A stretch of 64,000 nucleotides of DNA from an uncultured Acidobacteriota bacterium (GCA_963770895.1 CAVYRF010000002.1:4736001-4800000); one strand, 5' to 3'. Counted from the stretch's first letter, positions 11,598 to 40,824 are shown. The notes: generated by a model not told the origin, from the sequence alone. Numbers and translations are program-made.

Positions 11598-11627
11598 TGC
11601 GGGGCGAACACCCAAGGAGAACACGCC

Positions 11628-11783
11628 ATGAAAAAGCAGATCCGCCACCTGTTGCTCCATCGCGAGACCCTGCAGAACCTGAACGCTGCGAACCTGCCCA
11701 GGGCGGTCGCCGGCGCCGCGACCTCGCCGCCGGTGTGCGAGAACAGCGGCAACGCCATCACCCACTGCACGGGCTGCTGCTAG
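11628..11783 (+). CDS. RiPP (lanthipeptide-like) precursor peptide 1, 51 aa
   Basis: AAGGAG SD; MKKQIRHLLLHRETLQNLNAANLPRAVAG-AATSPPVCENSGNAITHCTGCC. Confidence 0.8.
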   Translation: MKKQIRHLLLHRETLQNLNAANLPRAVAGAATSPPVCENSGNAITHCTGCC

Positions 11784-11979
11784 GTAGCCGCCAGCGATCG
11801 CACCGGGCCGGCTGCGGCCGGCCCCGCCTCGGGCGCTTCAGGTGCGCCGCTGCCGGCGGCAGCGCACCTCGGCGAGGTCTGGGGCACCCGCATCCGGGCC
11901 ACCTATCCGCAGTCGCAGCCCGGGACGTCCGGGAGCCGGGAGCGGCGGCGCCGGGGCCGCAAGCCCGGCGCGGTTTGTG

Positions 11980-12150
11980 TTTGCAGGGCTGGCTGCTACC
12001 CGAGCGCGCACCGCAGGCTCAGGGTTTGGCGAGTGCGCGGTGGAGTCGGCAATATTTCTGGTGGGGCGGATGGATGGAGTTGGGAGCTATCGGCCGGAGT
12101 GCGAAGCGCACGGGGGCCGCGGTGCGCGCGAGGCAAGAGATTCGAAGGAG
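11980..12150 (+). repeat. 170-bp hairpin repeat, copy R5
   Basis: Same conserved arms as R1. Confidence 0.9.
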
Positions 12151-12313
12151 CTAGGGGGGCTGGATCTGGCAGGGTCGTTCCCCCGTTCCCCCGTTCCCCG
12201 AAAGGAAGGCAGCGCCGGCAGGCGTTCTCATTCGCCCCTCCGCTGTCTCGCATCCGAGAGGCGTGGGCACCCGACTTGATGGGACGCTACTCGAATCCGG
12301 AAAGGAAAAGCCC

Positions 12314-12460
12314 ATGAGAAAGACCCTGAAGCCCATCCGCTTGCAGCGCGAGACCCTGAAGCATCTGACCGATGGCACGCTCGACAAGGTGCGCGCCGCC
12401 TGGCGCGAGAACACCAACTACATCAGCTGCCCGAATCCGCAGACCTGCCTCGGCTGCTGA
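12314..12460 (+). CDS. RiPP (lanthipeptide-like) precursor peptide 2, 48 aa
   Basis: AAGGA SD; MRKTLKPIRLQRETLKHLTDGTLDKVRAA-WRENTNYISCPNPQTCLGC. Confidence 0.8.
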   Translation: MRKTLKPIRLQRETLKHLTDGTLDKVRAAWRENTNYISCPNPQTCLGC

Positions 12461-12891
12461 GCCCCCTGCCTGCACAAGAAGGCCGATCGCCGGCCCGGCC
12501 GGCCCGCTGAGCGATTGCGGGCAGGCCGCGCAGTCGACGATTTCGGGAGCCAGGAGATCGCCGGCAATCGCCAAGTCCATTTGGCCCTGCTTGCCCAGGA
12601 AGCGTGCGCAAGTGGAGGTAGGCTTCGACGGCCGCCGCGGCCGGTGCAGCGCCACCATGTGACGGAAATGGTCGGGACCGCCGGCGTAGGCCGTGAGTGA
12701 ACATCTGCTGCCTTGATTGCGGTGCGTTCGGCGTTACTGGCGGAATGGCTGAGGGCGGGGGGGCGGGGGCAGTGGTGGGATGTGATGTCGCTGCTGGGAG
12801 GCGGTGCAGGAGGGGATGGGGGGGGAGGTGGCGGCGCTGGCGGCTGCTGGCGTCCGACCAGGGCAACCATGTATAACCTGTACAGGCCGTC

Positions 12892-14136
12892 GTGGCCTGG
12901 ACCGAGCTGGTAAAGTTGTACGAGCCGCACATGCAACCAACCACCAGAGCCGACGTGGCACCGCAACTCCTTCGCTGGGCGCGCGAGACCGCCGGTCTCT
13001 CCGCCGAGGAAGCTGCGCGCCAGCTCGGGGTCAAGCCAGACCGCCTGGGCGAATGGGAAGCAGGGCAGCTCAGTCCGACTGTGCCTCAGTTGCGCAAGGC
13101 TGCGGCCATGTACAAGCGGTCTCTGGCGACGTTCTTCCTGGCCGAACCGCCGGCGACGGCGGCGCCCCCCCACGACTTCCGGCGACTTCCCCCGGAGGGA
13201 CGCGGCGAGGCTGCGCTGTCTCCGGCCTTGCTTCTCGCCATTCGCCGAGCGAACCGCCGCCGCCGCATCGCGGTCGAGCTGGCGCGCGAGAACGGCGCTT
13301 CGCCTCAGCCGTTTTCGGTTCGCGGGGAGCCGAGCGACGACGAGGAGCTGGGCGCTCGCCTGCGGTCGTTCCTCGGCGTGGCGCTCGACGACCAGATGAA
13401 GTGGAGAGGAGACTACCAGCCGCTCAACGCCTGGGTCGCGGCACTCGAATCAAGGGACGTCCTGGTGTTTCAGGCAAGCCACATCTCGGTAGGGGAGATG
13501 CGCGGCTTCTCGATCAGCGAGCGCACCTTCCCAGTGATTGTCCTCAATTCCAAGGACTCGCCCCGCGGGCGGGTATTCACCCTGATGCACGAGCTGGTCC
13601 ACCTGGCCCTGAGCGAAGGCGGTGTCTGCGATCCGCTGGAAGCCCGCCGTGGCGCCCACAGCCGGGACGACGAGGTCGAGGTCTTTTGCAGTCGCATCGC
13701 CGGCGCGGTCCTGGTTCCGGCCGAGGCGCTGCTGGCGCCGCCACTGGTGCGCGCCGCCGCGCAGCCGCAGGAATGGGACGACTCGGAGCTGCATCGGCTG
13801 GCGCAGTTTTTCGGGGTCAGCGACGAGGTGATTCTGCGGCGCCTGCTCATCCTGCGGAAGACCACCGAGGCGTTTTATGAGGCCAGGCGCCGCGCCTACC
13901 AGAGAGCCTACACGGCGATGAGGATCGCAGACGCGGCCAAGCCGATACGGATTCCACCGTCCGTGATCGTGGTGCGCAACAATGGGCGCCTTTACACTCG
14001 GTTAGTTCTGGCAGCGCTCGACAGCGACAGGATCACCTTTGCCGACGTTGCCGACTATCTGGGCACAAACCTCAAGCACCTGGACGCGATTGCCGATCTG
14101 GTCGGAGCCGCGCGTCCCGCCGAGGCCATGGTGTGA
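12892..14136 (+). CDS. XRE HTH + ImmA/IrrE family metallopeptidase
   Basis: LRWARETAGLS...WEAG HTH; RVFTLMHELVH HExxH motif; start may be ATG 12931. Confidence 0.9.
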   Translation: MAWTELVKLYEPHMQPTTRADVAPQLLRWARETAGLSAEEAARQLGVKPDRLGEWEAGQLSPTVPQLRKAAAMYKRSLATFFLAEPPATAAPPHDFRRLPPEGRGEAALSPALLLAIRRANRRRRIAVELARENGASPQPFSVRGEPSDDEELGARLRSFLGVALDDQMKWRGDYQPLNAWVAALESRDVLVFQASHISVGEMRGFSISERTFPVIVLNSKDSPRGRVFTLMHELVHLALSEGGVCDPLEARRGAHSRDDEVEVFCSRIAGAVLVPAEALLAPPLVRAAAQPQEWDDSELHRLAQFFGVSDEVILRRLLILRKTTEAFYEARRRAYQRAYTAMRIADAAKPIRIPPSVIVVRNNGRLYTRLVLAALDSDRITFADVADYLGTNLKHLDAIADLVGAARPAEAMV

Positions 14137-14162
14137 CAGTTTATGTGGTGGATAGCAGCGCC
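14133..14162 (+). pseudogene. N-terminal stub of a DUF4411/PIN-like partner
   Basis: GTGA overlap, then VTVYVVDSSA, resembling a PIN first strand plus Asp. Confidence 0.45.
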
Positions 14163-14201
14163 GAAGGCTGTGCTCCATCGCTGAGAGGCGGAGGACCGTC
14201 G

Positions 14202-15407
14202 TCATGGAGATCCGAGGACCGCCGGAGAGGATGATGCGGGACCTGAGGACGACGCAAGATTGACCATTTCTCTGATCGAATCGATGACCTCTCGCAGTAA
14301 CTTCAAGGAGATTGTCAGCTCGTACTCGTAGGCTGCTAAAGCCTCGCCAAGGTTCTTCTTTGGTTGGTCGAGCATGGCAGGCAGGTTCGAGACCGTCATC
14401 CGGTATTCCGCTAGAGTTGGTAGTGCGCTGGCCGTGGCAACCTCAGATTCAGTTAACGCTTGGAGTAGTGAACTGAGATATCCAGCTGCCATCCCGCCTG
14501 CGACCAGTGTGGAAATGATTGCAGCCAATCGTCCGTACGCGAGAGAGCCGTTCGCCCTAGAGAGCCGGAATGTGGGCAGCTCAAAGCGTAGGCGCTCAGC
14601 AAATTCGGTCATACATTTCGACACGCGCTCTACCGAGCGTTTTGTGAACGCCATGGCATCCGCCATGCTTCCAGTGCTTCTAATGGCGTTCAATTGCACT
14701 GTCTCGGCGCTCATCAGCTGCGTCATCTGGCGGATTAGAAGAGTAACCCGCTCTGTCGCCCTCGTACTTCTCTCGGTCTCAGAAGCAGACCACTCGCTGG
14801 TTTCCCGCAGATCTGCGCTCATTCCAGTGGCGCCAGTGGCCGGAATAAGCTTTGCTCCGTCAGACGCATTACGCCAAGCTCTTGCGATCTTTTGCAGAGT
14901 CCTTGATAGATGAAACCGTAGGAGCGATTCGAACTGCTCGGTGTCACTAAACGACCAATCGAGCAAGCCAAGGTTCCTGGTGCCTTCTCGAAAAGACCGA
15001 ACCTTCGCCAGCTGGTCGATGTTCACGTCAAAGGGCAGCGCGGCTTCCTTGAAGTAGAGCATAATTGCTGGCCTACCATCAGGGACTGACCGGTTCTGAT
15101 AGGCTCTTTTGAACTCTTCTTCCGTTCCCGATTCAGCCCGTGGAGTGGGAGTGCCAAATCGCGACCATAAAATTCCGAGAAAAATGTCATGATCGTTCCC
15201 AAGCTGTTCATTAAGAACAGCCTGTGCGTCAGAGCCAGCGGCGGGATAACCATGGGTCTCCCAGCGGATAACCTCGATATTGAAGCCCAGCACTTCAGAC
15301 CATAGCGCATTGAGCTCGATGACTACTCTTGTAGCTACCGCTCGCTCGGCAGTCACATCATTGGGCGAGGACACAAACACGCGGATACGTGGAAATCCTT
15401 CGATCAT
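14202..15407 (-). CDS. DUF4062 (TIR/NDT-like) domain protein with helical C-terminus
   Basis: RVFVSSPNDV.AER...DIFLGILWSRFGTPT..SGTEEEF; visibly lower GC than flanks. Confidence 0.85.
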   Translation of the reverse strand: MIEGFPRIRVFVSSPNDVTAERAVATRVVIELNALWSEVLGFNIEVIRWETHGYPAAGSDAQAVLNEQLGNDHDIFLGILWSRFGTPTPRAESGTEEEFKRAYQNRSVPDGRPAIMLYFKEAALPFDVNIDQLAKVRSFREGTRNLGLLDWSFSDTEQFESLLRFHLSRTLQKIARAWRNASDGAKLIPATGATGMSADLRETSEWSASETERSTRATERVTLLIRQMTQLMSAETVQLNAIRSTGSMADAMAFTKRSVERVSKCMTEFAERLRFELPTFRLSRANGSLAYGRLAAIISTLVAGGMAAGYLSSLLQALTESEVATASALPTLAEYRMTVSNLPAMLDQPKKNLGEALAAYEYELTISLKLLREVIDSIREMVNLASSSGPASSSPAVLGSP

Positions 15408-15482
15408 AGAGCACCGAGTTTTCTACGTTGGTCAGGGGCAAGAGCTCGTTTAGTCTTTGCTTGCGGGGTTTGGATTGCAGTG

Positions 15483-15668
15483 CGAAGGTCCGCGCGTTGT
15501 CAGGATGTGCGCGTGGTGGGTCAGCCGATCCAGCGAGGATCCGCGGCCCGGCTGCTGATTCCCGCACCGGGGACACAGCTTGCGGCAGATGTCACCGACT
15601 GGCGTATCGGCTTCTGACTGCCGGAGCGCCATGGCGATCTGCTCCCCCGTGAACCGGCTGTTCCTCAC
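15483..15668 (-). mobile_element. Chimeric IS scar: IS3-family OrfA N-terminus + IS21 IstB C-terminal fragment
   Basis: VRNSRFTGEQIAMALRQSEADTPVGDICRKL followed by LDRLTHHAHILTTRGPS. Confidence 0.75.
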
Positions 15669-15784
15669 TGGGCTGCCCCCTTCCCCGTCGGGAGCTGGGG
15701 GGACCGCGTACCAGCTATTCCGAGAGTCGCTCTGGTCCAAGATCCGGGGCTACCCACCCAATTAATTGTATTACCCTTAAAGAG

Positions 15785-15856
15785 TATCCCCAACGGGATT
15801 CGAACCCGTGTTGCCGCCTTGAAAGGGCGGAGTCCTAACCACTAGACGATGGGGAC
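15785..15856 (-). tRNA. tRNA-Glu (anticodon UUC), CCA not encoded
   Basis: GTCCCCA acceptor stem, D arm, CCGCC-CT-TTC-AA-GGCGG anticodon arm, GGTTCGAATCC T loop. Confidence 0.97.
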
Positions 15857-15979
15857 TTGAGACTGCGGCCCGGGCAGGGGCGCGTCGGTCGGTCGGAGAT
15901 AAGGCTAACACAGGCGGTGCGGCGGAGCGAAGCTGGCGGCTGAGGTTGTCCTGCGGCCGATCGGTGTGTGGCTTTGCCG

Positions 15980-16354
15980 CTAGAGCTCGAGCAGGTTGCT
16001 GTGCTGGAGGAGGGTGCGGACGGCGGCGACGATGGCGAGGGGGTCGGTGTGCTCGGCGTTGGCGATGCAGACGGAGACGTGGCCTTGGGAGATGGGCTGG
16101 ACCAGCTGGAAGAAGTTGCCGTAGCGGACCAGGAGGTAGCGGAGGCCGCCGCAGTCCAGGTTGCCGCGCTGGGTGGTGAGCTTGAGGAGGGCGGGGTTGA
16201 CGAAGAGCTCTTCGTAGCGGTCGGTTTCGTTGGAGCCTTCGCCGATGACGCCGGGACGCTGCCACATGCTGAGGGCGTTGGCGCGATAGAGGGCGACGTA
16301 GCGGACGTCGGGGGAGGCGGCGAAGATCTCGGCGACCAGGGAGTCGAAGACCAC
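15980..16354 (-). CDS. Hypothetical protein (possibly roadblock/longin-like)
   Basis: 124-aa ORF with high-GC codon bias. Confidence 0.7.
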   Translation of the reverse strand: MVFDSLVAEIFAASPDVRYVALYRANALSMWQRPGVIGEGSNETDRYEELFVNPALLKLTTQRGNLDCGGLRYLLVRYGNFFQLVQPISQGHVSVCIANAEHTDPLAIVAAVRTLLQHSNLLEL

Positions 16355-16443
16355 GAACTCATCTTACCTCGGGCTGGAGGGGGCGGAGTGAGATGCCCGG
16401 CTGGCCGGATGGGGCGGTGGTGTGGGCGGTGCGCCGGCGGCGA

Positions 16444-17142
16444 TCAGGCGGGCAGCGGGTTGGTTGCCGCGGGGGTGCCGGCGCGGCTGAAGGCTCGGTC
16501 GTCGAGCCAGCGGGTGATGAGGCGGAGGGCTTCGGGGCGGATTTCGTGGCCCATGTCGAATTCGCGGTAGGTGAGGCTGACGCCGAAGGGGCGGAGGAGC
16601 TCGCGGGATTGGCGGGCCTGCTCGATGTCGATCCGGTTGTCGGCGGTGCCGTGGACGACCAGGACGGGGAAGCCGTCCTGCTCGGGCAGGCGTGGCAGGT
16701 CTTCGGCCAGGGGGACGGGGAACCAGCTGGAGAGGGCGGCCAGGCCGCTGTAGCGGGTGGGGTGGCGCAGGGCCAGGTCGTAGGCCATCATGCCGCCCTG
16801 GCTGAAGCCGGCGACGGCGAAGGCTTGGGGATCGATGGGGTAGCGGGCCTGGGCCTGGGCGGCGAAATCGCGCAGCTCGCCGGCGGCGTGGCGGAAGGCG
16901 TCGTGGTCGGGGGGGAGGCCGGGCTGGAGGGGGAACCAGCCATAGCCCCTTTCGCCGCCGCCGATGGGGAGCACGATGGGACCCTGCGGGCAGAGGACCA
17001 GGGCGCGGCCGCCGTGGATGAAGGGGGCGAGGCCGAAGAGGTCGTGGGCGTTGGCGCCCCAACCGTGGAGCAGGAGGAGGGTGGGGAAGGGGCCTTCGCC
17101 GGCGGGCACGTGCGCGGTGTAGAGGAGCTGGGAGGCGCTCAT
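16444..17142 (-). CDS. Phospholipase/carboxylesterase (alpha/beta hydrolase)
   Basis: LLHGWG, GFSQGG, HGTAD, MGH motifs. Confidence 0.9.
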   Translation of the reverse strand: MSASQLLYTAHVPAGEGPFPTLLLLHGWGANAHDLFGLAPFIHGGRALVLCPQGPIVLPIGGGERGYGWFPLQPGLPPDHDAFRHAAGELRDFAAQAQARYPIDPQAFAVAGFSQGGMMAYDLALRHPTRYSGLAALSSWFPVPLAEDLPRLPEQDGFPVLVVHGTADNRIDIEQARQSRELLRPFGVSLTYREFDMGHEIRPEALRLITRWLDDRAFSRAGTPAATNPLPA

Positions 17143-17924
17143 AGGGCCTCGGTGCCCAGGGCGATGATCGCGAAGGCCGCACCTTGCGGATCGGCCAGGA
17201 CGGCGAAGCGGCCGACGCCGGCGGCGTCGCGGGGGGGCGCCAGCAGGGTGGCGCCAAGGTCCTGGGCGTGGTGCAGGGTGGCGTCGCAGTCGGCGACGGC
17301 GAAGTAGGCCAGCCAGCTGGGGGGCTGGGCCTGGTCGCCGGCGGGCTGCAGCATGCCGGCGATCGGCCTGCCCTGGTTGGTGAAGGTGGTGTAGTGCCAG
17401 CCGCCCATGTCGCGGGTCATGGCGTCCCACCCAAAGAGCTCGCGGTAGAAGTCGCCGGCGGCGCCGGCGTTGGCGGTGACCAGCTCGTTCCAGCACCAGG
17501 CCCCCGGCTCGTTGACCAGCGCGGCTCCGGGATGGCGGCCAGGCTGCCAGAGGGCGAAGCGTGCGCCCGTCGGATCCACCAGGGTTGCCATGCGCCCGGC
17601 TTCCATGACGTCGAACGGCGCCTGCAGGAGCTTGGCGCCGAGCGCGGTGGCCTTGGCGGCCGCGTCGTCGACGCTGGCGACCGAGAAGTAGTGCCGCCAA
17701 GCCGGCGCCGGCGCGGTGCCGGGAGCTGGATCGCTCTGGAAGAGCGCGGCGACGTCCTTGTCGCGCAGGCGCAGCATCGTGTAGTACTGATCCGGCCCGA
17801 TCGGGCTGTCGAAGGTGGTCCAGCCGAAGAGCGCGCTGTAAAACCGCTTGGCGTCGCGGCTGTCGGTGGTGGCCAGCTCGACCCAGCAGGGGGTTCCGGG
17901 GGCATAGGATTCGACTTCGGGCAT
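17139..17924 (-). CDS. VOC/glyoxalase family protein (two domains)
   Basis: PGTPCWVEL..FYSALFGW; WCWNEL..FYRELFGW; DPQGA. Confidence 0.92.
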   Translation of the reverse strand: MPEVESYAPGTPCWVELATTDSRDAKRFYSALFGWTTFDSPIGPDQYYTMLRLRDKDVAALFQSDPAPGTAPAPAWRHYFSVASVDDAAAKATALGAKLLQAPFDVMEAGRMATLVDPTGARFALWQPGRHPGAALVNEPGAWCWNELVTANAGAAGDFYRELFGWDAMTRDMGGWHYTTFTNQGRPIAGMLQPAGDQAQPPSWLAYFAVADCDATLHHAQDLGATLLAPPRDAAGVGRFAVLADPQGAAFAIIALGTEAL

Positions 17925-18096
17925 GACGTTTGTCTCCGCCGGCGTGGCCGCTTCCAGTTGCCTCAGTATCGCCGAAAGCCGCGATGCGGCCAACCCGAGC
18001 CTATTCCGGTTTGATAGGGCGGGGATGGATCGGGAGCGGTGCGGCGGCGGTGATAGAGTCGGGTTCCCAATTCTTGATGGAAGGCTTTGAGGTGCC

Positions 18097-19554
18097 ATGA
18101 GATACGCGCTCTGTGCCGGATTGCTGGTGCTGCTGCTGAGCCTGGGTTCCCTGGCTCCGGGTGGCGCGCTGGCGGCGCCCGCGGTGCCTGTGGGAGCCGC
18201 GGGGTCTGCGCCGACGCCGACGTCGGAGCCGTCTTCTGCCACGGCAGCGCCCGCAACGTCCGCGGTGCCCGCGACGTCCGGGGCGTCCGGCGGCGCCGCG
18301 GTGGCGCGGCCGGCGGCCCGGGTGCGGTTGCATGTGGCCAGGCTGCTGGACGGGCGGGGCGGCGCTGTGGACGATGCGACGGTGGTGGTGGAGGGGGAAA
18401 AGATCGTCGGTGTGCAGGGCGGCGGCCGGGCTGGCGGCGTGGTTGGCGGCGCCGGGAGGGCGGCGGATGGCGAGGTGGTGTGGGAGCTTGGCGAGCTGAC
18501 GCTGATGCCGGGCGGGATCGACACGCACGTGCACATCGGCTGGCACTTCGACGCCGACGGCAAGGCGCATTACGGGGCGGACGAGCAGGAGCCTGCCGCG
18601 GTGTCGGCGCTGTATGCGGCGGAGAACGCGGCGGTGACGGTGGCCGGCGGCATCACCACGGTGCAAAGCCTGGGTGCCAAGGAGGACCGCTACCTGCGCG
18701 AGGCGGTGGCGCGCGGCATGCTGCCGGGGCCGCGCATCGTCACGTCGTTGACGCCTATCGACGAGGAGACCGGACCGCCGGCGGCGATCCGCGCCGCCGT
18801 GCAGAAGCTGGCGGCGGACGGTGCCGACGTGGTGAAGATCTTCGCTTCGAAGAGCATCCGCGACGGCGGCGCGCCGACGCTGACGCAGGAGCAGCTGGAT
18901 GCGGGGTGCGGCGAGGCGCGCCGGCTGGGGCTGCGCTCCGCGGTGCATGCCCACGGCATCGAAAGCGTCCGGCGCGCCGTGCTGGCGGGTTGCGGCTCGA
19001 TCGAGCACGGCGTCTTGCTGGATGCCGCGTCGCTGCGGCTGATGGCCGAGCACCACACGTATTTCGATCCGAATATCGACCTGGTGTTCCGCAACTATTT
19101 CGAGAACGCGGTGCATTTTGTCGGTATCGGCAATTTCACCGCCGAGGGCTTCGCGCTGATGCGCAAGGCGGTGCCGCTGGCGCTGCAGGTGTTTCGCCAG
19201 GCGCTCGCCACTCCCGGATTGAAGGTGGTGTTCGGCACCGATGCCGTCGCCGGTGCGCACGGACGCAATTTCGAAGAGCTGATCTACCGCGTGGAGCAGG
19301 GCGGCCAGGACCCCATGGCGGCCATCGTGTCAGCCACTTCGCTGGCCGCCGAGAGCCTGCGGCTGGGCGACCGCACGGGCGCCGTCGCGCCGGGCCTGGA
19401 CGCCGACCTTATCGCCGTCGACGGCGACCCGCTGCACGACGTGCGTGCCCTGTCGCGCGTCGTGTGGGTCATGAAGGCGGGCCGCGTGGTCAAGAACCAG
19501 CTGCGGTCCGCCCGCGCCGGCGCCGGTGCCGCCGCCTCCTCCAACCACCGTTAG
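18097..19554 (+). CDS. Secreted metal-dependent amidohydrolase
   Basis: Signal peptide; PGGIDTHVH, HAH, EHG, GTD, ADLIAVDGDP. Confidence 0.9.
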   Translation: MRYALCAGLLVLLLSLGSLAPGGALAAPAVPVGAAGSAPTPTSEPSSATAAPATSAVPATSGASGGAAVARPAARVRLHVARLLDGRGGAVDDATVVVEGEKIVGVQGGGRAGGVVGGAGRAADGEVVWELGELTLMPGGIDTHVHIGWHFDADGKAHYGADEQEPAAVSALYAAENAAVTVAGGITTVQSLGAKEDRYLREAVARGMLPGPRIVTSLTPIDEETGPPAAIRAAVQKLAADGADVVKIFASKSIRDGGAPTLTQEQLDAGCGEARRLGLRSAVHAHGIESVRRAVLAGCGSIEHGVLLDAASLRLMAEHHTYFDPNIDLVFRNYFENAVHFVGIGNFTAEGFALMRKAVPLALQVFRQALATPGLKVVFGTDAVAGAHGRNFEELIYRVEQGGQDPMAAIVSATSLAAESLRLGDRTGAVAPGLDADLIAVDGDPLHDVRALSRVVWVMKAGRVVKNQLRSARAGAGAAASSNHR

Positions 19555-19597
19555 AGCAGGCAGGTGCGGCCTGCCGCCCCGCCGCGCGGTCGCGGGG

Positions 19598-22467: not shown

Positions 22468-22474
22468 GACGACA

Positions 22475-30709: not shown

Positions 30710-30748
30710 GGGCCGGCTTGCCGGCGATCTGAAGGAGCGGGAGACGGT

Positions 30749-32809
30749 ATGCTCAAAAACCTGAAGGTGGCGCACAAGATCGCGTTGATGCCGGTGCTGG
30801 CGCTGATCGGCTTCGTGGTGGTGCTGGTCATCTCGCAGCAGTTGAGCAGCGAGAGCAGCGATCGGCTGCGGTTCATCCAGCAGGAATATCTGCCCGCGGT
30901 GCAGGCCAGCCGCGACCTGCAGGAGACGCTGACCAACATCCAGCGCGGTCTGCAGGACGCGGTGGCGGCCAACGATGCCGGCATGCTGGCCGAGGCCGAC
31001 GCGCAGAGCGAGCGCTTCCAGTCGACGCTCGAGGGCCAGAGCGGCAACCAGATGCCCTTCGCCGCCGACGCGCGCGCCATCTCCGCCGCCTTCACCGACT
31101 ATTACAAACAGGCGCGCGCCACCACCGAGCGCATGATCAAGGGCGAGCACGGCGACGACGTGGTCAAGGCGATGCAGACCATGCGGCAGCAGTACAACGC
31201 GGTGCACGGCAGCCTGGAGGACTTCAACGCCAAGTGCCTGCTGCAGACGGCGCTGTCGTTCGACGGCGCCAAGGCCAACCAGGGGTTGGTGGTCAGGATC
31301 TCGGTGCTGGTGACGGCGCTGATCGTGCTGACGCTGGGGGTGCTGTCGTACTTCGTCATCCGCTCGCTCACCCGGCCGCTGTCGCAGGCGGTGGCGGTGG
31401 CCGGCCGCCTGTCGCAGGGCGACATGGGAGTCGGCATCATCCCCACCTCGCACGACGAGGTGGGAGAGCTGCAGCGCGCCATGGCCAGCATGATCGTCTA
31501 CCTGCGCGAGATGGCGCGCGTCGCCGACGCCATCGCCGCCGGCGACCTGACCTCCAACGTCGAGCCGCGGTCTCCGGCCGACAGCTTCGGGCGTGCGTTC
31601 CAGCGCATGACCGCCAACCTGCGCCAGATGCTGGGCGCGGTCAAGGAGTCGACCGGCCAGGTGGCGACCACCGCCGACGAGATCTCGGCGTCGGCGCTGC
31701 AGATCACCCGCGGCGCCGAAACCCAGTCCAGCTCGACCGAGGAGACTTCCGCGACGATGGTGGAGATGGCGGCGCAGATCGACAGCGTGAACCGCTCGAT
31801 GCAGGCGCTGGCCACCAACGTCGAGGAGACGTCCAGCTCGATCCAGGAGATGGGCGCCTCGATCGACAACGTGGCGCGCGGCTCCGAAAGCGTGCTGGCG
31901 GCGGTCGACCAGACCGCCACCACGGTCGAGCAGATGACCGCTTCCATCCACTCGATCGCCGGCAAGGTGGCGGTCGTCGACCAGGTGTCGCGCGAAGCCG
32001 CGGCGGCCGCCGACCAGGGCGGCGCACGCCTGTCGCGCGTCATCCAGGGGATCAGCGCCTCGGGCAAGGACATCGGCAAGATCCTGCGCATCATCGAGGA
32101 GATCGCCGACCAGACCAACCTGCTGGCGCTCAACGCCGCCATCGAAGCGGCGCGCGCCGGCGACGCCGGGCGCGGTTTCGCGGTGGTCGCCGAAGAGGTC
32201 AAGCGGCTGGCGGAGCGTTCGATGCTGTCGACGCGCGAAATCTCGACGGTGGTCGACTCGGTGCAGCGGGACACCGACGAAGCGGTGCAGCTGTCGCAGA
32301 ACGTGCTGCACCAGATCGTGGAAGCGGTGGGCCGCACCACCACGGTGGTCAGCGAGGTGCACACCGCCACCCGCGAGCAGACCAGCGGCGCGGCGCAGAT
32401 CCTGTCCACCGTCAGCTCGATGCAGACCACCATGCAGCAGCTGGCTACCGCGGCGCGCGAGCAGGCGCAGGGGGCGCGCCAGATCCTCTCCGCGGTGGGC
32501 GGCATGAACCGCATGACGCTGCAGGTGGCCGACGCCACCGGCGAGCAGATGCGCGCCGGCGACCAGGTGGTCAAGGCGGTCGACCAGATCGCGCAGGTGG
32601 CGCAGCAGCATCGCTCCGCCACCGAGCAGCTGTCGCGCGCCACGCAGAGCCTGGCTTCCGAGGCCGAGCGCATGCGCCGCCTGACGGAAGTGTTCCAGTT
32701 GAGCGGCGCGGCACCGCCGGCGCCGGCCCCGGCGGTGCGGCACGACCGCCACGACCGCGCCGGCGACCGGCCGGTGCGCTACGAGCGCGAGAGATCGGCG
32801 CGGGCATGA
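30749..32809 (+). CDS. Methyl-accepting chemotaxis protein
   Basis: Two TM segments, HAMP domains, [33 protein letters not shown]. Confidence 0.97.
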
Positions 32810-34905
32810 CGACCTTCTCACGCGGCGACGCCCAGGATCTCGGCCTGCCGAGCTGGGAAGAGTGCATGGAGCTGCTCGACCGCCTGCCGGCGCTGCCGGT
32901 CGCGGCGCGCGCCGAAGCGCTGCAGCGCCTGTTGCGCAACGCCAGCCCCGGCATCCGCGAGCGGGCGCTGCGGCTGGGCGCCGCCATCCTGGCGGACGAC
33001 GCGCTGGTCGAGCTGCTGCGCGACGACGCCGACGCGGTGATGCGCAACGCCGGGCTGGAGATCCTCAAGATGCGCGGCGGCCGCAGCTATGCGGTCGCCA
33101 TCCGGCTGCTGCGCGACGCCGATTCCGATGTGGTGTTGCAGGCGGTGCTCATCCTGGACCACCTGCGCGATCCGCGGGCGCTGGCGCCGCTGCGCGCCGC
33201 GCTGGTCAACTCCGACCCCAACGTGGTGCAGGGGGTGATCCTGGCGATCGGCCGGCTGGGCAATGCCGGCTCGGTGCCCGACCTGCTGCCGTTTCTGGCC
33301 GCCGACCCGTGGTTGCAGATGGCGGCGGTGCAGGCGCTGGGGGACCTGCGCTCGGTGCGCGCCGTGCGGCCGCTCGCCAACCTGCTGACCGACCTGATCG
33401 TCGGCCCGATGGCGGCAGAAGCGGTGGCGCGCATCGGCGGGTCGCTGGCGCTGCGCACCCTGGCGGCGCACTGGCTGAGCTACGGCGAGCAGCTCGACGC
33501 CGCCTCCATGCTGGGGCTGCTGGCGCACGTCCTGGAAGGGTTGCGGCGGCCGCCGGCGGAGATGCCCGAAATGCTGCTGCCGTCGCTCGCCGCGCGGCTC
33601 GAAGACCCGGCGCACGAAGTGCGGGCGGCGGCGGCGCGCGCCCTGCTGGCACTGGGTCCGTCGGCCTGGGACGGCGACGCCGTAGGGGTGCTGGCGGCGC
33701 AGGCCGCGGAGGCGGCGGTGCCGCTCGGGGATGGCGCGCCGACGGCCGGCAGCGGCCGGGGCGATCGGCGATTTGCCGCGGCGGCCGCCGGCGGTGGGGC
33801 GTCCGAGGGGCGGGCCGGCGACACGGCGGGTGCGGCAGGCGGCGCGGGCACCGCGGCGGACGCGGCGCGCGCGCTGGCGGCGGGGGCCATCGCGTTTCCG
33901 CCGGCGCTCGAACGGCGCGGCGACCTGGCCGCGGCGCTGCTGGCGCAGCCCGGCTTTCCGCGGGCGTGGGGAGTGCTGTTGTGCGCGCGCCTGGGCGCGG
34001 CGGTGCCGGTGGCGGAGTTTCTGGCGGCGGCGGCCGACGCGGCGGCCACGCCCGAGCTGCTGCCGTCGTGCGTCAAGGTGCTGAGCCGGCTGCGCCATGC
34101 GCAGGCCGGCGCGGCGATCCTGGACGTCTACCTGGCGGTGCCGGCGGATGCCCGCGCCACCCTTGCGTCGCTTTTGGTGCGCCGGCGCGACGAGGTGCGC
34201 GCGGCGCTCGGCGCGCGCCCGGCGGGCGAGGACCTGGACCCGGTCGATCGGCTGGTCGTCCTGGCGCGCCTGGGCGAGCCGGCGGCGGCGGTGGTCGCGG
34301 CGATCCTCGACCTGGCCCCGGCGCAGCGGGTGGCGGCGGTGCTGCAGCTGGCCGGCCTGCGCGCCGTGGTGCGCGCGCTGCCGTGGCAGCAGTGGCTGCG
34401 CGAGGACCCCGCGGTGTATGCCGAGGCGGCGGCGGAGGCCGCCAGCCAGGCGCAGCTGCGCGAGCTGCTGCCGGCCCTGCGCGAGCTGCCGGCGGCGGTG
34501 GCGACGCCGACCCTGCTGCGCGCGTTTGGCGAGCTGGCCGACCGCGCCAGCGTGCCGGTGCTGCTGGAGCTTGCCGCCAGCCGCCCGGCGCTGCGCGCGC
34601 TGGCGCTCGAGAGCCTGGGGCGGATCGGCGGCCCGGAGGCGCGCGCGGCGCTGTCGGCGGCGGCCCGCGCCGGGCGTGGCGGCGAGGCGCGCGCCGCCTA
34701 TCGCGCCCTCACCCTGTGCGCGGCCGAAGAGGACGAAGGGCTGTTCCGCGCCACGGTCACCCATCCCGATTGGTACGTGCGGCTGCTCTGCGTCGAAGTG
34801 CTGGGACGCTTCGGGCGCCCCGAGAACCTGAACGCCTTGGCGCGCCTGGCGGGCGATCCGGTGCCCGCCGTGGCCAGCCGCGCTCTCGCCCTGCTCGAAG
34901 GTTGA
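32806..34905 (+). CDS. HEAT repeat protein
   Basis: Repeated 'L.D.D..V...A..ALG' units; ATGA overlap with the MCP. Confidence 0.85.
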
Positions 34906-34943
34906 AGCGGGCGGGCGGCGGCGGAGCGGCGGAGGCGTAGGCG

Positions 34944-35858
34944 ATGCGGGTGCTCGGATCATCCATGCGCGCGGTGCCGGAGGCGATGACGCAGGAAGAG
35001 TACCTGCTGCTCAACGAGCTGATCTCCGGCGACATCGGGGTCGCGTTCCCCGAACACAAGCGCGACGTGCTGGAGGCGCGCCTGCGCCCGCATTTGCAGG
35101 CGCTGCGGCTGCGGCGCTACCTGGATTACTACTACCTGCTGCAGGGCGGCGACGAAGCCGAGCGGCGCCTCCTGGCGCAGCTGGTGACCAACAATGAAAC
35201 CTATTTTTTCCGCGAGACGCAGCAGTTCGACGTGCTGTTCGAGCACGCCTTTGACGATCTGAAGGCGGGCGCCGCCGTGCCCGGCGGCCTGCGCCTGCTG
35301 TCGGCGGGCTGCTCGTCGGGCGAAGAGGTGTACACGCTCAGCATCATCGCCCGGCAGAACTTCGTGCGCCTGGCCGGCACCTCGCTGACGATCGACGCCT
35401 TCGACGTGGATCTCACCCGCGTCGAGACGGCGCGCCGCGGCGAATACGCCGGCGCCTCGTTTCGCGCCACCAGCCGCGAGCAGCTGGAGCGCTACTTCGT
35501 GCCGGTCGGCGGCAACGGGGCGGCGGCCGCCGCCCCGGAGGTCATCGGGCTGCCGGGGGCCATCGGGCGCTATGCGGTCAAGACGTTTTTCCACGGCGGC
35601 CTGCGGTTCAACCACGGCAACATCCTGGAGCTGGACAGCTTCGCCGCTCCCGTCGCCTACGACGCGGTGTTCTGCCGCAACGTCTTCATCTACTTTTCCG
35701 AGCCGGCGCTGCACCGGGCGGTGGCCAACTTCGCCGCCGTGCTGCGGCGCGGCGGCCTGCTGTTCCTCGGCCACTCCGAATCGATCATCGGCCTGTCCGA
35801 CCGCTTCGAAACCGTCCGCCTGCGCAACCTGATCGCCTATCGCAAGGTGCGGGATTGA
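34944..35858 (+). CDS. cheR: Chemotaxis methyltransferase
   Basis: TNNETYFFRE, SAGCSSGEE, FCRNVFIYF, LGHSE. Confidence 0.95.
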   Translation: MRVLGSSMRAVPEAMTQEEYLLLNELISGDIGVAFPEHKRDVLEARLRPHLQALRLRRYLDYYYLLQGGDEAERRLLAQLVTNNETYFFRETQQFDVLFEHAFDDLKAGAAVPGGLRLLSAGCSSGEEVYTLSIIARQNFVRLAGTSLTIDAFDVDLTRVETARRGEYAGASFRATSREQLERYFVPVGGNGAAAAAPEVIGLPGAIGRYAVKTFFHGGLRFNHGNILELDSFAAPVAYDAVFCRNVFIYFSEPALHRAVANFAAVLRRGGLLFLGHSESIIGLSDRFETVRLRNLIAYRKVRD

Positions 35859-36988
35859 GTCCCATCCGCGTGGCGGTCGCCGACGATTCGGCGTTCATCC
35901 GCCAGGCGGTCGCCCGCATGCTGCAAGGGGAGAGCGGCATCGCGCTGGCGGGCCAGGCGGGCTCCGGCGAAGAGCTGCTCGACCACCTGGACAGCTGGCG
36001 CCCCGACGTCATCATCCTGGATCTGTCCATGCCCGGCCTGGGCGGCCTGGCGACGCTCGACGCCATCATGGTGCGGCGCCCGACGCCGGTCCTCATCCTG
36101 TCCACCCATTCGCGGCAGGACGCGCCGCAGACCATCGAAGCGCTGCACCGCGGCGCGCTCGACTTCATCGACAAGCAGCAGTACTCGCTGGTCGATTTCG
36201 AGCGCCTGCGTGCGGTGCTGCTCGAAAAGATCCGCCACCTGACGCGCCGTTCCACGGTCGACCCGCCGGCCGGCGCGGCCATCGGTGCGGGAGCGGCCGC
36301 GGGTGCGGCGGCAGCGGTCGCGGACGGGGGTGGCGGCGGTGCCGGCGCCGAGCGCCGGGGCGGCAGCACCGGTGGGAGGGGGGATGCGGGCGGCAGTGCG
36401 GAACCCGAGGTCGTGCTGATCGGGGCGTCGACCGGCGGGCCGCCGGCCATCGAGGCGATCCTGCGCCAGCTGGGCGACAGCCTGCCGCTGCCGGTGGTCG
36501 TCGTGCAGCACATGCCGGCGGGGTTCACGCGCTCGTTCGCGGAGCGGCTCAATGCCGGCCTGCCCCTGCCGGTGCGCGAAGCGACCCACGAAGAGCCGCT
36601 GGTGTCCGGCACCGTCTACGTGGCGCCCGGCGGGGTCCACCTGCGGCTGCTGCGGGCGCGCGGCGGCCTGCGCGTCTCGCTGTCGTCGGCGCCCGAGGGG
36701 AGCACCCACCGGCCGTCCATCGACCACCTGTTCGCGTCCGCGGCGGCGGTGACCGGGGGCCGGGTCCTGGCCGTGGTGCTGACCGGCATGGGGCACGACG
36801 GTGCAGCGGGGGTGGCGGCGCTGGCGCACGCGGGCGCCTACGTCATCGCCCAGGACGAGGCGACCGCCGCGGTGCACGGCATGCCGCGGGCGGCCATCGC
36901 CACCGGCGGCGTGCGCGAAGTGCTGCCGCTCGCCCTGATCGGGCGGCGCCTGCTGGAGCTGCTGAGCGAATCGGACGACGACGCCTAG
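35855..36988 (+). CDS. cheB: Chemotaxis methylesterase (REC + esterase)
   Basis: DDS..LDLSMP; GASTGG, QHMP, RPSID, LTGMGHDG. Confidence 0.95.
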   Translation: MSPIRVAVADDSAFIRQAVARMLQGESGIALAGQAGSGEELLDHLDSWRPDVIILDLSMPGLGGLATLDAIMVRRPTPVLILSTHSRQDAPQTIEALHRGALDFIDKQQYSLVDFERLRAVLLEKIRHLTRRSTVDPPAGAAIGAGAAAGAAAAVADGGGGGAGAERRGGSTGGRGDAGGSAEPEVVLIGASTGGPPAIEAILRQLGDSLPLPVVVVQHMPAGFTRSFAERLNAGLPLPVREATHEEPLVSGTVYVAPGGVHLRLLRARGGLRVSLSSAPEGSTHRPSIDHLFASAAAVTGGRVLAVVLTGMGHDGAAGVAALAHAGAYVIAQDEATAAVHGMPRAAIATGGVREVLPLALIGRRLLELLSESDDDA

Positions 36989-37395
36989 CGAACGATGGCC
37001 ACGTCGTCGTGCGGGGTGCGCGGGGCGCTGGGGGTCAGCACGCGGCGGGCCAGCTCCAGGATCGCTTCGTTGCGGAACGGCTTGCGGACGTAAGCGGCGG
37101 CGCCGGCCTGCAGGCCGCGGATGGTGTCGGCTTCCTTGCCTTCGGTGCTGATGATGATCACCGGGATCTGCGCCAGCGCCGCGTCCTTTTTGAGCTGGGC
37201 CAGCAGCTCAAGGCCGTTCATCGCCGGCATGTTGATGTCGAGGAACATGAGGTCGACGTCGGGGTGCTCGGCCAGCCGCGCCAGCGCTTCGCGGCCGTCC
37301 ATGGCATGCACCAGCGACGCCTTGGGGAAGATCACGGCGAAGAGCTTGTGGATCAGCTGCGAATCGTCGATGACGAGGATTTTCTGCGGCTGCAT
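36985..37395 (-). CDS. Single-domain response regulator (CheY-like)
   Basis: IDDS, LDINMP, ST, KPF. Confidence 0.92.
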   Translation of the reverse strand: MQPQKILVIDDSQLIHKLFAVIFPKASLVHAMDGREALARLAEHPDVDLMFLDINMPAMNGLELLAQLKKDAALAQIPVIIISTEGKEADTIRGLQAGAAAYVRKPFRNEAILELARRVLTPSAPRTPHDDVAIVR

Positions 37396-37857
37396 GGTTC
37401 CTCTCGATCCTCTCCGGTATCTCGGGTGTCTCCGGGCTCCGGGGTCTCCGGGTTCCGGGACGCGGGTCGGCGGACCGACCCCTGTTGCTTACAGTGCGTC
37501 TGCAGGCCCCAGACGCGAAATCCAATTTGGGCAGCCCCAGCGTTGAAGTTTGAGCAGCCCTCGCGTTGATGAGCGAAAGATACCAGAACACAACCGACTC
37601 GTCTATCCCCGTGGGACGTTTGGGGTCATTTTAATCCCATTTCGCAAAAATTAGGGATGCCCGGTATCGTATCTGGCGTCAGTGGCCAGCCTGCCGCCGG
37701 GGGCTGGTGTCGCAGGCCGGGCGCTGATGGCGGCGGGCTGGCGTGGGGCGCCGGGGAATGTGGCGGCGGGCTGGCGTGGCCCGCCGGGGTGCGGCCCCCG
37801 CCCCCCTGGCTGCCTGGCCCCCTGGGCGCGGTCTTTGCTCTATGGGAGGATCCACCC

Positions 37858-40542
37858 ATGCGAGCGATGCGCTCTTGTACCCTGGCCGCCCTGGCTGTCT
37901 GCTGCCTGGTGGGGACGCCACCGTCGCTTCACGCGGACAGCGAGAAGGCGATGGTGGCCCGCCTGCAGCCGCAATACCGTGACTGGTGGCTGGAAGTGTC
38001 GCTGCTGATCGGCCGCGACGAGCGCAAGGAGTTCCTGGGGCTGACCAAGGACTACGAGCGCGACCTGTTCATCCGTCGCTTCTGGGAGGCGCGCAACCCG
38101 GATCCGGGCATTGCGCCCAACGCCTTCAAGATCGAGTGGGAGCGCCGCATCGAGGCCGCCCGCGACTACTTCGGCAACATCACCGAGGACCGCGCGGTGA
38201 CTCTGCTGTTGCATTCGGCGCCGCCGGACCGCATCCAGACCGATTGCCTGCAGGCCACCTGGCCGCTCGAGATCTGGCACTACCGGTTTGGCGAGCGGAT
38301 TCCCGACGACCTGTACCTGCTGTTCTACCAGACCGCCGGATCCGGTCCGTTCCGCCTCTGGCGACAGGGGGACGGCCTGGCGACGCTGATCGCCAGGCTC
38401 AGCAACCAGCGGTCGCCACAGCTGCCGTCGCAGGGTGGAGTCGGGCAGGGGTCGCGGCCGCCCGACATCAATTTCAGCGGCTTGGGTGCGATGTCCAACG
38501 ACCTGTCGACGTTCTGGACCTTCCTGCAAGCCAACTGCCCCGACGAAGCGCCGATGCTGATGAACGCGGTCACCACGGTGGAGCGGGAAGACAGCTTTCA
38601 CATCCTCGACAAGCTCCTGGTGCCGCCGCCGCCGCACGACGCGGAGTGGCTGGCCACGTTCCGCGGCTACTCGACCAACGTGCCGCCCGGATCGCTGGCG
38701 CTGCCGGCGACCCTCAAGGTGACCTTCCCCGCGCGGCAAAAGAGCCGCGCCGTGGTTTCGGGCACGGTGGCGGTGCCGCCGGGGGCGGCCCAGGCCGTCG
38801 AGCTGGAAGGGCATCGCGCCTACAACTTCCTGCTCACCGGCGAGGTGGTGCAGGGGACCGAGCTGGTCGAATCGTTCCGCTACCGCTTCGACATGCCGGC
38901 GCCGAGCGGCGCGCAGGATACGCCGCTGCCGCTGGTTTTCGAGCGCACGCTGGCGCCCGGCGACTACGTGCTGCTGCTGCGCGTCGAAGACCTGCATTCG
39001 CATCACAACTTTCACGCCCAGGAGCCGATCACCGTGCCGCCGCTGGACGGCCTGCCCGACGTGGCCACCGCGGCGCGGCCGCCCGAGGTCACCGCGGTCC
39101 TGGATGCCGCGCGCGCCGAGCTGAAGGCCGGCGACGCCGGCGCGGCACCGCCGGCCGCACCGGGTGCCGCCGGCGCGCCGGCCACGGCGGCGGGTGGTGG
39201 CGCCGGCGCCGCGATCCGGCTGGTGCCTCCCGAGGGCGAGCGCATCACCGGCGCCGTGCGGCTGGAGGCGCAGGCCAGCGGCGACGCGGTGCGCAAGGTG
39301 ACGTTCTACCTCGACGGCAAGGCGATGCTCAGCCGCGTGCGGCCGCCCTATTCCGTCGAGCTGAACCTGGGCGACGTGCCGCTCACCCACGAGGTGCGCG
39401 CCGTCGCCTATGCGCGCGACGGCGCCGAGCTGTCGGCCGACACCGTGATGCTGAACGTACCGCGCCAGCGCTTTGCCGTGCACCTGGTCGAGCCGCGCGC
39501 CGGCGGCACCTACAAGGGCCAGGTGCTGGCGCGCGCCGAAGTGCATCTGCCCGATGGCGGCAAGCTCGACCGGCTGGAAGTGTTCGTGGACGACCAGCGC
39601 GTCGCGACCCTCTACCAGCCCCCCTTTGCCCAGCAGGTGACGCTCAAGGCGGACAACGCCAGCTACGTGCGCGCCGTCGGCTACCTGACCGACGGCACCT
39701 CGGCCGAGGATCTGGCGGTGATCAACTCGCGCAACGCGGTGGAATCCCTGGACGTGCGCCTGGTGGAGCTGTACGCCGCGGTGGTGGACCGCGCCGGGCA
39801 TCCGGTCGATCGGCTGCAGCAGAGCGACTTCAAGGTCACCGACGGCGGTGAGGCGCAGACCCTGCTGCGCTGCGAGCGGGTGCGGGACCTGCCGCTGCAC
39901 GTGCTGTTCGCGCTGGACACCTCGGCTTCGATGACGGCGATCCTGCCGCAGGTGCAAAGGGCGGCGCTCGCCTTTTTGCAGCGCACCTTGACGCCCAAGG
40001 ATCGTGCCGCGCTGCTCACCTTCAGCGACAGCCCGATCCTGCGCGTGCCCTTCACCGCCAACGTCGATACCCTGGCGGGCGCGCTCGCCGGCCTGAGCGC
40101 CGAGCGCGGCACGGCGCTGTTCGACAGCCTGGTGTACGGCCTTTCCTACATGAAGGGCGCCCAACACACCCAGTCGGCCCTCGTCCTGTTCACCGACGGC
40201 GACGACCACCTGAGCCATCTGCGCTTCGAGGAGACGTTGGAGTATGCGCGGCGCAGCGGCATCGCGCTCTACACCATCGGGGCCGGCGTCTCCCGCCTCG
40301 ACCTGCAGTCGCGCGCCCACCTGAGCCGCCTCGCCGAAGAGACCGGCGGCCGCAGCTACTTCATCGACTCGGCGGCCCAGCTCGACAGCGTCTACGACGC
40401 CATCGGCACCGAGCTGCGCTCGCGCTACCTGCTGGCCTACCAGCCCAACAAGCCGCCGCACATCGGCGAGTTCCGCAGCGTCGACGTCCAGGTCCTGGGC
40501 GACGGCCTGCGCGTCAAGACCCAGCGCGGCTACTATCCCTAA
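37858..40542 (+). CDS. GWxTD-like + Ig-like + VWA domain secreted protein
   Basis: ER.LFIRRFW..RNPDP..N.FK..W.RRI; DTSAS MIDAS; FTDG; LAEETGG; ELRSRYLLAY. Confidence 0.88.
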   Translation: MRAMRSCTLAALAVCCLVGTPPSLHADSEKAMVARLQPQYRDWWLEVSLLIGRDERKEFLGLTKDYERDLFIRRFWEARNPDPGIAPNAFKIEWERRIEAARDYFGNITEDRAVTLLLHSAPPDRIQTDCLQATWPLEIWHYRFGERIPDDLYLLFYQTAGSGPFRLWRQGDGLATLIARLSNQRSPQLPSQGGVGQGSRPPDINFSGLGAMSNDLSTFWTFLQANCPDEAPMLMNAVTTVEREDSFHILDKLLVPPPPHDAEWLATFRGYSTNVPPGSLALPATLKVTFPARQKSRAVVSGTVAVPPGAAQAVELEGHRAYNFLLTGEVVQGTELVESFRYRFDMPAPSGAQDTPLPLVFERTLAPGDYVLLLRVEDLHSHHNFHAQEPITVPPLDGLPDVATAARPPEVTAVLDAARAELKAGDAGAAPPAAPGAAGAPATAAGGGAGAAIRLVPPEGERITGAVRLEAQASGDAVRKVTFYLDGKAMLSRVRPPYSVELNLGDVPLTHEVRAVAYARDGAELSADTVMLNVPRQRFAVHLVEPRAGGTYKGQVLARAEVHLPDGGKLDRLEVFVDDQRVATLYQPPFAQQVTLKADNASYVRAVGYLTDGTSAEDLAVINSRNAVESLDVRLVELYAAVVDRAGHPVDRLQQSDFKVTDGGEAQTLLRCERVRDLPLHVLFALDTSASMTAILPQVQRAALAFLQRTLTPKDRAALLTFSDSPILRVPFTANVDTLAGALAGLSAERGTALFDSLVYGLSYMKGAQHTQSALVLFTDGDDHLSHLRFEETLEYARRSGIALYTIGAGVSRLDLQSRAHLSRLAEETGGRSYFIDSAAQLDSVYDAIGTELRSRYLLAYQPNKPPHIGEFRSVDVQVLGDGLRVKTQRGYYP

Positions 40543-40668
40543 CCCGCGGCGGTTGGCGCGCGGGGGTTGAGGCGTGGAACCTGGGACGGCCTTGAGGGGC
40601 AACCGGGCCTTGGACCGGGCTGCCCCTCCTCGATTCCTTCCGGCCGACGCTCGGCAGCGCGCTGTTGC

Positions 40669-40824
40669 CTAAGGGCAAATCGTCGAAGTGCACGTCGGGC
40701 AGGTCGTCTGAGCATAGCTGGTCAGGCAGACGCCTCCATTGAGCTTCTTGAGCAGGGCGGGATTCAAGTGGTGCAGGGTTTCCCGCGAGAGCTTCAGGGT
40801 TTTCCTCGGTCCGCTCTTTTTCAT
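40669..40824 (-). CDS. RiPP (lanthipeptide-like) precursor peptide 3, 51 aa (not in ORF track)
   Basis: TAAGGAGG SD; MKKSGPRKTLKLSRETLHHLNPALLKKLNGG-VCLTSYAQTTCPTCTSTICP*. Confidence 0.88.
   Translation of the reverse strand: MKKSGPRKTLKLSRETLHHLNPALLKKLNGGVCLTSYAQTTCPTCTSTICP

Follow-up and report, generated by a model that had tools for sequence, protein, structure and literature searches.

Three orphan Cys/Ser/Thr-rich peptide genes of an uncultured Acidobacteriota bacterium as likely precursors of a scattered class I lanthipeptide system

The DNA considered here, hereafter the window, is a stretch of 64,000 nucleotides from the genome of an uncultured member of Thermoanaerobaculia (Acidobacteriota; GCA_963770895.1, CAVYRF010000002.1:4736001-4800000), corresponding to C2:4736001-4800000 in the genome coordinates used below. 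The assembly holding it amounts to 8.16 Mb in 3 contigs, has 70.7% G+C and is 95% complete. The window carries three small open reading frames (ORFs) that appear to encode precursors of RiPPs (peptides synthesized on the ribosome and modified post-translationally) and that belong to a family dispersed over the whole genome. Leaders and putative cores were separated by a simple heuristic rule for the leader end. The three genes and the features around them are listed by window position.

11628-11783, plus strand: precursor 1, 51 amino acids; leader MKKQIRHLLLHRETLQNLNAANLPRAVAGAA; putative core TSPPVCENSGNAITHCTGCC
11614..11619, plus strand: Shine-Dalgarno sequence AAGGAG, 8 nucleotides 5' of the precursor 1 ATG, read from the sequence
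12314-12460, plus strand: precursor 2, 48 amino acids; leader MRKTLKPIRLQRETLKHLTDGTLDKVRAA; putative core WRENTNYISCPNPQTCLGC
12241..12489, plus strand: conserved unit of about 250 bp, comprising precursor 2 with about 75 nucleotides upstream and about 30 nucleotides downstream
40669-40824, minus strand: precursor 3, 51 amino acids; leader MKKSGPRKTLKLSRETLHHLNPALLKKLNGG; putative core VCLTSYAQTTCPTCTSTICP
40832..40838, minus strand: Shine-Dalgarno sequence AAGGAGG, 7 nucleotides 5' of the precursor 3 ATG, read from the sequence
40850..40877, minus strand: promoter-like candidate TTGACA-16-CATAGT upstream of precursor 3, with 10 of 12 consensus matches

All three peptides follow the same layout, in which M-(K/R)-K and a few further residues precede the motif LxLxRETLxxL, some ten residues lead to AA or GG, and the core follows. 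Their N-termini are basic (MKKQIRH, MRKTLKP and MKKSGPRK in precursors 1, 2 and 3, respectively), the motif reads LLLHRETLQNL, IRLQRETLKHL and LKLSRETLHHL, and the leaders, as split by our rule, end in AA, AA and GG. The cores contain 4, 3 and 4 Cys alongside several Ser and Thr residues. Precursor 2 is preceded by the Shine-Dalgarno sequence AAAGGA, and the spacing to the ATG is 6-8 nucleotides across the three genes. By codon score the annotated frame ranks top of six in every case, and the G+C content at third codon positions (GC3) of precursor 1 is 0.94. An earlier note on this DNA, drawn up from the window alone, had described the three ORFs with these coordinates, Shine-Dalgarno sites, basic N-termini, leaders and cores, and in all these respects it was accurate. 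It had also likened the leader to the LxLxKx5L pattern of Bacteroidota class I lanthipeptides. The likeness holds with R replacing K, since LxLxRx5L is present in all three leaders, and the only family-library match was to NF038153, seen for two of the three peptides: precursor 1 (13.1 bits, E 0.081) and precursor 3 (18.0 bits, E 0.0023). The same model matched 8 of 23 family leaders at E≤0.01 (best 4.6e-4), and all of these matches are below its cut-off. A Pfam search of the peptides returned nothing meaningful, and neither NCBIfam nor Pfam gave a match to a Nif11 or NHLP-type leader at E≤10. The peptides are present in public protein collections without a functional name; 'hypothetical protein', borne by a near-identical sequence, is the sole name found in their clusters.

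A six-frame motif search followed by a search with a leader hidden Markov model (HMM; cut-off E≤0.01) identified 93 small ORFs of this family genome-wide, one or two of them doubtful; an independent search with an alignment of 23 leaders gave 91. Precursors 1, 2 and 3 score E 2.3e-12, 1.5e-8 and 1.1e-9, respectively, with the leader HMM. Since three genomes of similar size from the same family (G011, G014 and G016) have no leader-family match, compared with 93 and 91 matches here, chance can be excluded as the source of these ORFs. The dispersed family proposed in the earlier note is thus real, but its scale had been underestimated, as the three ORFs of the window represent about 90. Nearly all family ORFs are preceded by an AAGGAG-like Shine-Dalgarno site, their mean GC3 is 0.83, and the annotated frame is the best of six by codon score in 82 of 93. 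Our rule for the leader end yielded 90 putative cores with a mean length of 24 amino acids, composed of 17.2% Cys, 15.5% Thr and 8.7% Ser, a make-up like that of lanthipeptides; Ser and Thr together equal or exceed Cys in 86 of them. The leaders, with a basic N-terminus and the motif LxLx(R/K)ETLxxL, average 31 amino acids, contain 0.7% Cys and end in GG (51), AG (14), AA (13) or GA (12). While leaders share 38% identity on average, only 2 of 3916 core pairs are more than 50% identical. One of these two pairs consists of precursor 1 and its paralogue at C2:3876774-3876929, with cores 95% identical.

Genome-wide searches for Lant_dehydr_N, LANC_like, Lant_dehydr_C, Peptidase_C39, DUF4135 (LanM) and Radical_SAM gave no match inside the window (MNIO and YcaO were not part of this search), in keeping with the earlier note, which had found no LanB, LanC, LanM, radical SAM or peptidase-ABC exporter gene there and had predicted a remote modifying enzyme. 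A candidate for that enzyme was indeed found: a full-length LanB and a LanC lie 403-432 kb from precursors 1-3. This LanB (1177 amino acids, C2:5180050-5183583) is the single full-length one in the genome. It matches PF04738 Lant_dehydr_N (1e-165) and PF14028 Lant_dehydr_C (5e-71) and resembles the structurally solved dehydratases MibB (6e-47) and NisB (1.8e-24). The adjoining, convergently oriented LanC (469 amino acids) has WCYGD and CHG motifs and is homologous to NisC (3.7e-10). The pair spans C2:5178606-5183583 and is flanked by genes for RNase II, chorismate synthase, an M14 peptidase and a secretion ATPase; it has neither a precursor nor a protease or transporter next to it, and 16.5 kb separate it from the nearest family member, so that none of the 93 falls within 16 kb. 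The genome also has one weaker Lant_dehydr_N match, one lone Lant_dehydr_C match and, besides the LanB-adjacent LanC, twelve LanC-like regions, of which two are part of LanM genes. A separate exporter locus (C2:2970253-2974508) encodes a GAF-HlyD protein, a C39-peptidase ABC transporter and another LanC-like protein; the transporter is an orthologue (57% identity) of an exporter encoded within lanthipeptide clusters of G021, a related genome. Precursors lie at a median of 130 kb from any lanthipeptide enzyme or C39 match, and of the 92 on the two large contigs only 6 have one within 5 kb, four of these being small pairs of a LanC-like gene and one precursor. When the 519 proteins encoded within 4 kb of precursors were clustered, no modifying enzyme stood out as recurrent.

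In two paralogous pairs (C1:1579906-1581435 and C2:2707890-2709301) a stand-alone LanC-like gene is followed by a family precursor, and both precursors have an ETLLPL variant of the leader and His-rich cores with no Cys at all; here a cyclase-like gene adjoins a peptide unable to form a lanthionine. A radical SAM gene (C1:999998-1000453) is located about 0.9 kb from the precursor at C1:1001314-1001484, which may be due to chance given 31 radical SAM matches genome-wide.

The gene order in relatives provides more direct evidence for the link between this leader family and LanB than any count of co-occurrence. G021 has two compact clusters in which HlyD, the C39-ABC transporter, one LanA or six in tandem, LanC and LanB stand together. 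In G019 and G024 family members adjoin LanB. In G002, of the same genus as our genome, the RNase II-LanC-LanB synteny is kept, and the sole family member is about 2 kb from LanC. By the usual mining criterion (LanB and LanC within about seven genes) family members in these four genomes would be recognized, whereas precursors 1-3 would not. In public genomes, a family ORF occurs within 8 kb at 28 of 80 loci encoding an orthologue of LanB, including loci from Holophagales, Archangium, Cystobacter, Kofleriaceae and some metagenome-assembled genomes of Actinomycetota. Among the 30 nearest genomes, a strong LanB orthologue (E≤1e-100) and the leader family are both present in 17 and both absent from 11; in one genome only the family was found and in one only the enzyme. 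The threshold separates this LanB clade from a second one, which is also represented in G011, a genome without the leader family. As the genomes are related to each other, these counts are descriptive. The number of LanC domains rises with the number of precursors (Spearman 0.84, 31 related genomes). Thus, the co-occurrence with LanB and the adjacency in four relatives support the genome-wide combinatorial RiPP system envisaged in the earlier note, which had not named the enzyme class; modification, promiscuity and cleavage in that system are inferred.

We also modeled LanB residues 1-800 together with the leader. The complex received a score of 0.60, compared with 0.02 for the best of three controls, with at least 61% contact agreement between runs and a partner pLDDT (predicted local distance difference test) of at least 50. 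In calibration 58 of 80 solved complexes attained the passing mark, as did 2 of 110 mismatched pairs; at scores of 0.60 or lower it was passed by only 7 of the 80 solved complexes and by both of the passing mismatches. Complexes of NisB with its leader have reportedly been solved, so the pass may reflect likeness only. The prediction lends weak support to docking of the leader on LanB.

Since the genome also encodes two LanM proteins (C2:272811-275888 and C2:4307702-4310953), the precursors might instead be substrates of one of these class II synthetases, in a true prochlorosin-type arrangement. One family member, at C2:4304002, is 3.5 kb from the second LanM, and GG-type leaders are usual in class II, according to the available text of Walker 2020 (PMC7268733). 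Each LanM, however, has a precursor of its own next to it, at C2:4307447-4307653 (leader AWRDEDYY...) and C2:276212-276460 (leader AWKDPVYR...), with leader ends GG/GA; both loci look like ordinary class II clusters, and these leaders differ from those of the family. Moreover, among the 30 genomes LanM and the family coincide in 13 and are both missing from 9, while five relatives (G002, G008, G017, G018 and G021) have the family without a LanM match and three have LanM without the family. G018, which is 100% complete, has 36 family copies and no LanM match. We consider modification by LanM very improbable.

Another alternative is that the peptides are not lanthipeptides at all, but unmodified or disulfide-bonded double-glycine-leader peptides of the bacteriocin-like or signalling kind, cleaved and exported by C39-ABC transporters without any involvement of LanB. 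Leaders ending in GG, AG or AA, C39-ABC exporters in the genome, Cys-rich cores in which disulfides are possible, and orphan genes with no adjoining enzyme would all fit this explanation. Against it, Ser and Thr are enriched along with Cys, at least equalling it in nearly all cores (the 86 of 90 mentioned above), and the family tracks the LanB orthologue and sits inside the LanB/LanC clusters of relatives. On balance this alternative seems unlikely.

Taken together, these observations make it likely that the three ORFs encode LanA-type precursors of a class I lanthipeptide system with its components dispersed around the chromosome. In such a system the leader would dock on the single full-length LanB (C2:5180050-5183583), which would dehydrate Ser and Thr residues of the core in a glutamyl-tRNA-dependent manner; class I dehydratases use glutamyl-tRNA, according to the available part of PMC9993889. 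The LanB-adjacent LanC or another of the stand-alone LanC-like paralogues would then add Cys thiols to form (methyl)lanthionine rings, and the C39-peptidase ABC transporter with its GAF-HlyD partner (C2:2970253-2974508) would cut after the small-residue doublet and export the product. One dehydratase would thereby serve about 90 different substrates.

Several points weigh against this assignment. With precursors 1-3 some 0.4 Mb from LanB and among unrelated neighbours, their link to the enzyme rests on family membership. Precursor 2 has no NCBIfam match, and none of the three peptides reaches the 22-bit cut-off of NF038153. Not all leaders end in GG (51 of 91 do), and the cut sites were placed by our own heuristic. 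A few family members have very few Cys or none, and such peptides cannot form lanthionines. The E≤1e-100 threshold for a strong LanB orthologue was chosen after the data had been seen, and the 30 genomes compared are mutually related. Two of them break the pattern: G023 has the LanB orthologue without a leader match, and G005 has the leader family without a strong LanB, although this genome is 84% complete and has a LanB N-terminal fragment at a contig edge. With our own genome 95% complete, another enzyme could be absent from the assembly. Finally, dehydration, cyclisation, the cleavage site, export and the service of all copies by one LanB are predictions.

The family is unevenly distributed. 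Within the genus, copy numbers range from 1 (G002) to 64 elsewhere, compared with 91 here, and a different taxonomic family within the order has 51. When the phylum was sampled evenly, any leader match was seen in 10 of 201 genomes (including the unpublished G173), and many copies were seen only in this genome, G019 and G140, with no more than 38 candidates scored per genome. Individual precursors are also poorly shared between species, most of those compared lacking a close DNA match in the nine other species of the genus. Precursor 3 has no DNA match in nine genomes of the same genus, and for precursor 1, apart from its paralogue within the genome, the matches in congeneric species are all short and weak. 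Out of six further precursors compared with nine other species of the genus, one had a match (79%, in one genome). The repertoire turns over quickly from species to species. Precursor 2 behaves differently: two other species of the genus, G001 and G003, share the unit of about 250 bp at 93-95% identity, though in unrelated flanks, and the gene itself shows 96-97% nucleotide identity, whereas ordinary genes of the window (9.5 kb) reach only 68-78% in the same two genomes, in patches of at least 100 bp. The orthologues differ in the leader and at synonymous sites, and the core is identical across the three species. This suggests either strong selection or a recent transfer of the unit as a mini-cassette. 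Elsewhere, the roughly 400 bp between two precursors (C2:4838000-4838408) is 77-80% conserved in four other species of the genus, while the precursors themselves are not.

Fast turnover, with precursor 3 and most of the further precursors unmatched, and the single copy in G002 might also be expected if most orphan copies were silent relics left behind by duplication or transfer, unexpressed or unprocessed, with function confined to the few that sit beside LanC-like genes. Relics, on the other hand, would hardly be expected to keep intact ORFs, Shine-Dalgarno sites and coding-type codon usage, to retain Cys/Ser/Thr-rich cores across about 90 copies, or to preserve an identical precursor 2 core in three species in spite of changes in the leader and at synonymous sites. 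We therefore regard this explanation as very unlikely.

The assignment to class I can be placed among known systems. For Bacteroidetes, the available text of Walker et al. 2020 (PMC7268733) describes class I LanAs with an LxLxKx5L leader, GG ends and C39 proteases. These precursors (the pinensin family; NF038153 lant_leader_L1a) share with ours the leader pattern, GG-type ends and the presence of LanB and LanC, and in both cases, as far as that text goes, C39-peptidase ABC transporters stand in place of a LanP-type protease. They differ in that our family has an Acidobacteriota host, R instead of K as the basic residue, NF038153 scores below the cut-off and about 90 copies per genome, nearly all unclustered. 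We accordingly view the family as related to the NF038153 class I precursors, though sub-threshold and unclustered. Another close counterpart, the compact G021 clusters (HlyD, C39-ABC, one to six LanA, LanC, LanB; also Thermoanaerobaculia), has the same leader family with an orthologous LanB, LanC (47%) and exporter (57%); here the same components are split into the LanB/LanC pair, a separate locus for HlyD, exporter and a LanC-like protein, and about 90 dispersed LanAs. Nisin-type systems (NisA/NisB/NisC) have a homologous dehydratase and cyclase, with the similarity values given above. Their leaders, which contain an FNLD box, are cleaved off by a subtilisin-like LanP, and their genes are clustered with one or few precursors; none of these traits applies here.

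In its overall organization the family resembles the prochlorosins made by ProcM and the SyncA peptides of SyncM, class II systems of marine picocyanobacteria in which one promiscuous synthetase acts on scattered precursors with conserved leaders and hypervariable cores. There are 29 prochlorosin precursors, as stated in the accessible part of a review (PMC12328550), and up to 79 SyncA substrates, as stated in that of PMC9872173. Our family fits this pattern in having many dispersed precursors far from the enzyme, conserved leaders and hypervariable cores. Unlike these systems, which depend on a single LanM and long Nif11/NHLP-type leaders, it has leaders of about 31 amino acids with the LxLxRETLxxL motif; its associated enzymes are a tRNA-dependent LanB and separate LanC cyclases, and LanM correlates poorly with it. 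By analogy, the system could be described as a class I (LanB/LanC) counterpart of the class II prochlorosin system, which would work like prochlorosins but is not a member of the prochlorosin family. Our literature search found no description of dispersed class I precursors or of this family in Acidobacteriota, within a coverage that leaves aside subscription papers and supplements, such as the precursor lists of Walker 2020, which possibly contain related peptides. The accessible part of a paper on Thermoanaerobaculia lanthipeptides (PMC13083261) concerns class II and III clusters.

A broader evolutionary scenario may be offered, though we would not give it even odds. Soil Thermoanaerobaculia might have independently evolved a prochlorosin-like library on a class I platform. 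It would combine the largest reported per-genome precursor set that we found (about 90, compared with up to 79 for SyncM), a single dehydratase and diversified stand-alone LanCs, and it would gain new substrates in the form of mobile mini-cassettes, each some 250 bp long and made up of promoter, leader and core, passing from one species to another.

The surroundings of the precursors supply some further observations. In the window, a scan of ten neighbouring genes found none with a relation to RiPP biosynthesis; the flanking genes encode a multicopper oxidase, an IrrE/HTH protein, hydrolases, a VWA protein, an outer-membrane barrel and CheB. The promoter-like candidate 5' of precursor 3 was the one site in a consensus scan with 0.1 expected and carries no functional weight, and terminator scans near the three precursors gave nothing above shuffled expectation. 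Across the family, sigma-54 promoters were considered and rejected, as TGGCAC-N5-TTGC occurs upstream of 0 of 93 genes in its strict form and of 1 in its loose form, with no enrichment. A Gibbs search of the upstream regions found no strong common motif (about 8 bits over 30 positions), and their all-against-all comparison revealed no general similarity, a dispersed repeat alone being common to three loci. This repeat is about 200 bp long; counting copies of at least 120 bp, the genome has 18, which are 80-100% identical, five of them in the window (11300-11540, 11962-12148, 7911-8122, 5907-6077 and 1628-1812). One copy is just 5' of precursor 1 and one just 5' of precursor 2. A precursor is found less than 1 kb from 4 of the 18 copies, compared with about 0.5 expected by a rough estimate. 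The pattern GGCAC, chosen after viewing the data, occurs on the sense strand within 150 nucleotides upstream of 38 of 93 precursors compared with 427 of 1843 intergenic controls (P 1.7e-4); its reverse complement shows no enrichment upstream of precursors. The upstream regions concerned include window positions 11579-11601 and 12260-12282. Regulator genes adjoin about 11 precursor loci, among them at least two genes for sigma-54-dependent activators. The genome further has 51 loci of ADOP-family duplicated permeases (TIGR03434), including C2:3877433-3879757, C2:5660281-5662734 and C2:76589-78991, all outside the window. Such loci are found within 4 kb of 12 of 93 precursors compared with 6.0 ± 2.3 under random placement (P 0.013, with each clustered precursor counted as an independent case), and six of these loci come as near as about 200 bp or less. 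These permeases could have a role in immunity or export.

Enzyme-centred mining would pick up no more than 7 of this genome's 93 precursors, namely those within 10 kb of a lanthipeptide enzyme or C39 match, and a genome of this kind holds about 90 ready-made, untried core sequences. If the proposed system is real, its LanB/LanC pair would have an unusually broad substrate tolerance, which would be useful for peptide engineering. The natural combinatorial lanthipeptide libraries known so far depend on class II enzymes found in marine cyanobacteria. If soil bacteria that are abundant and uncultured do have a class I counterpart, this strategy would have evolved more than once.

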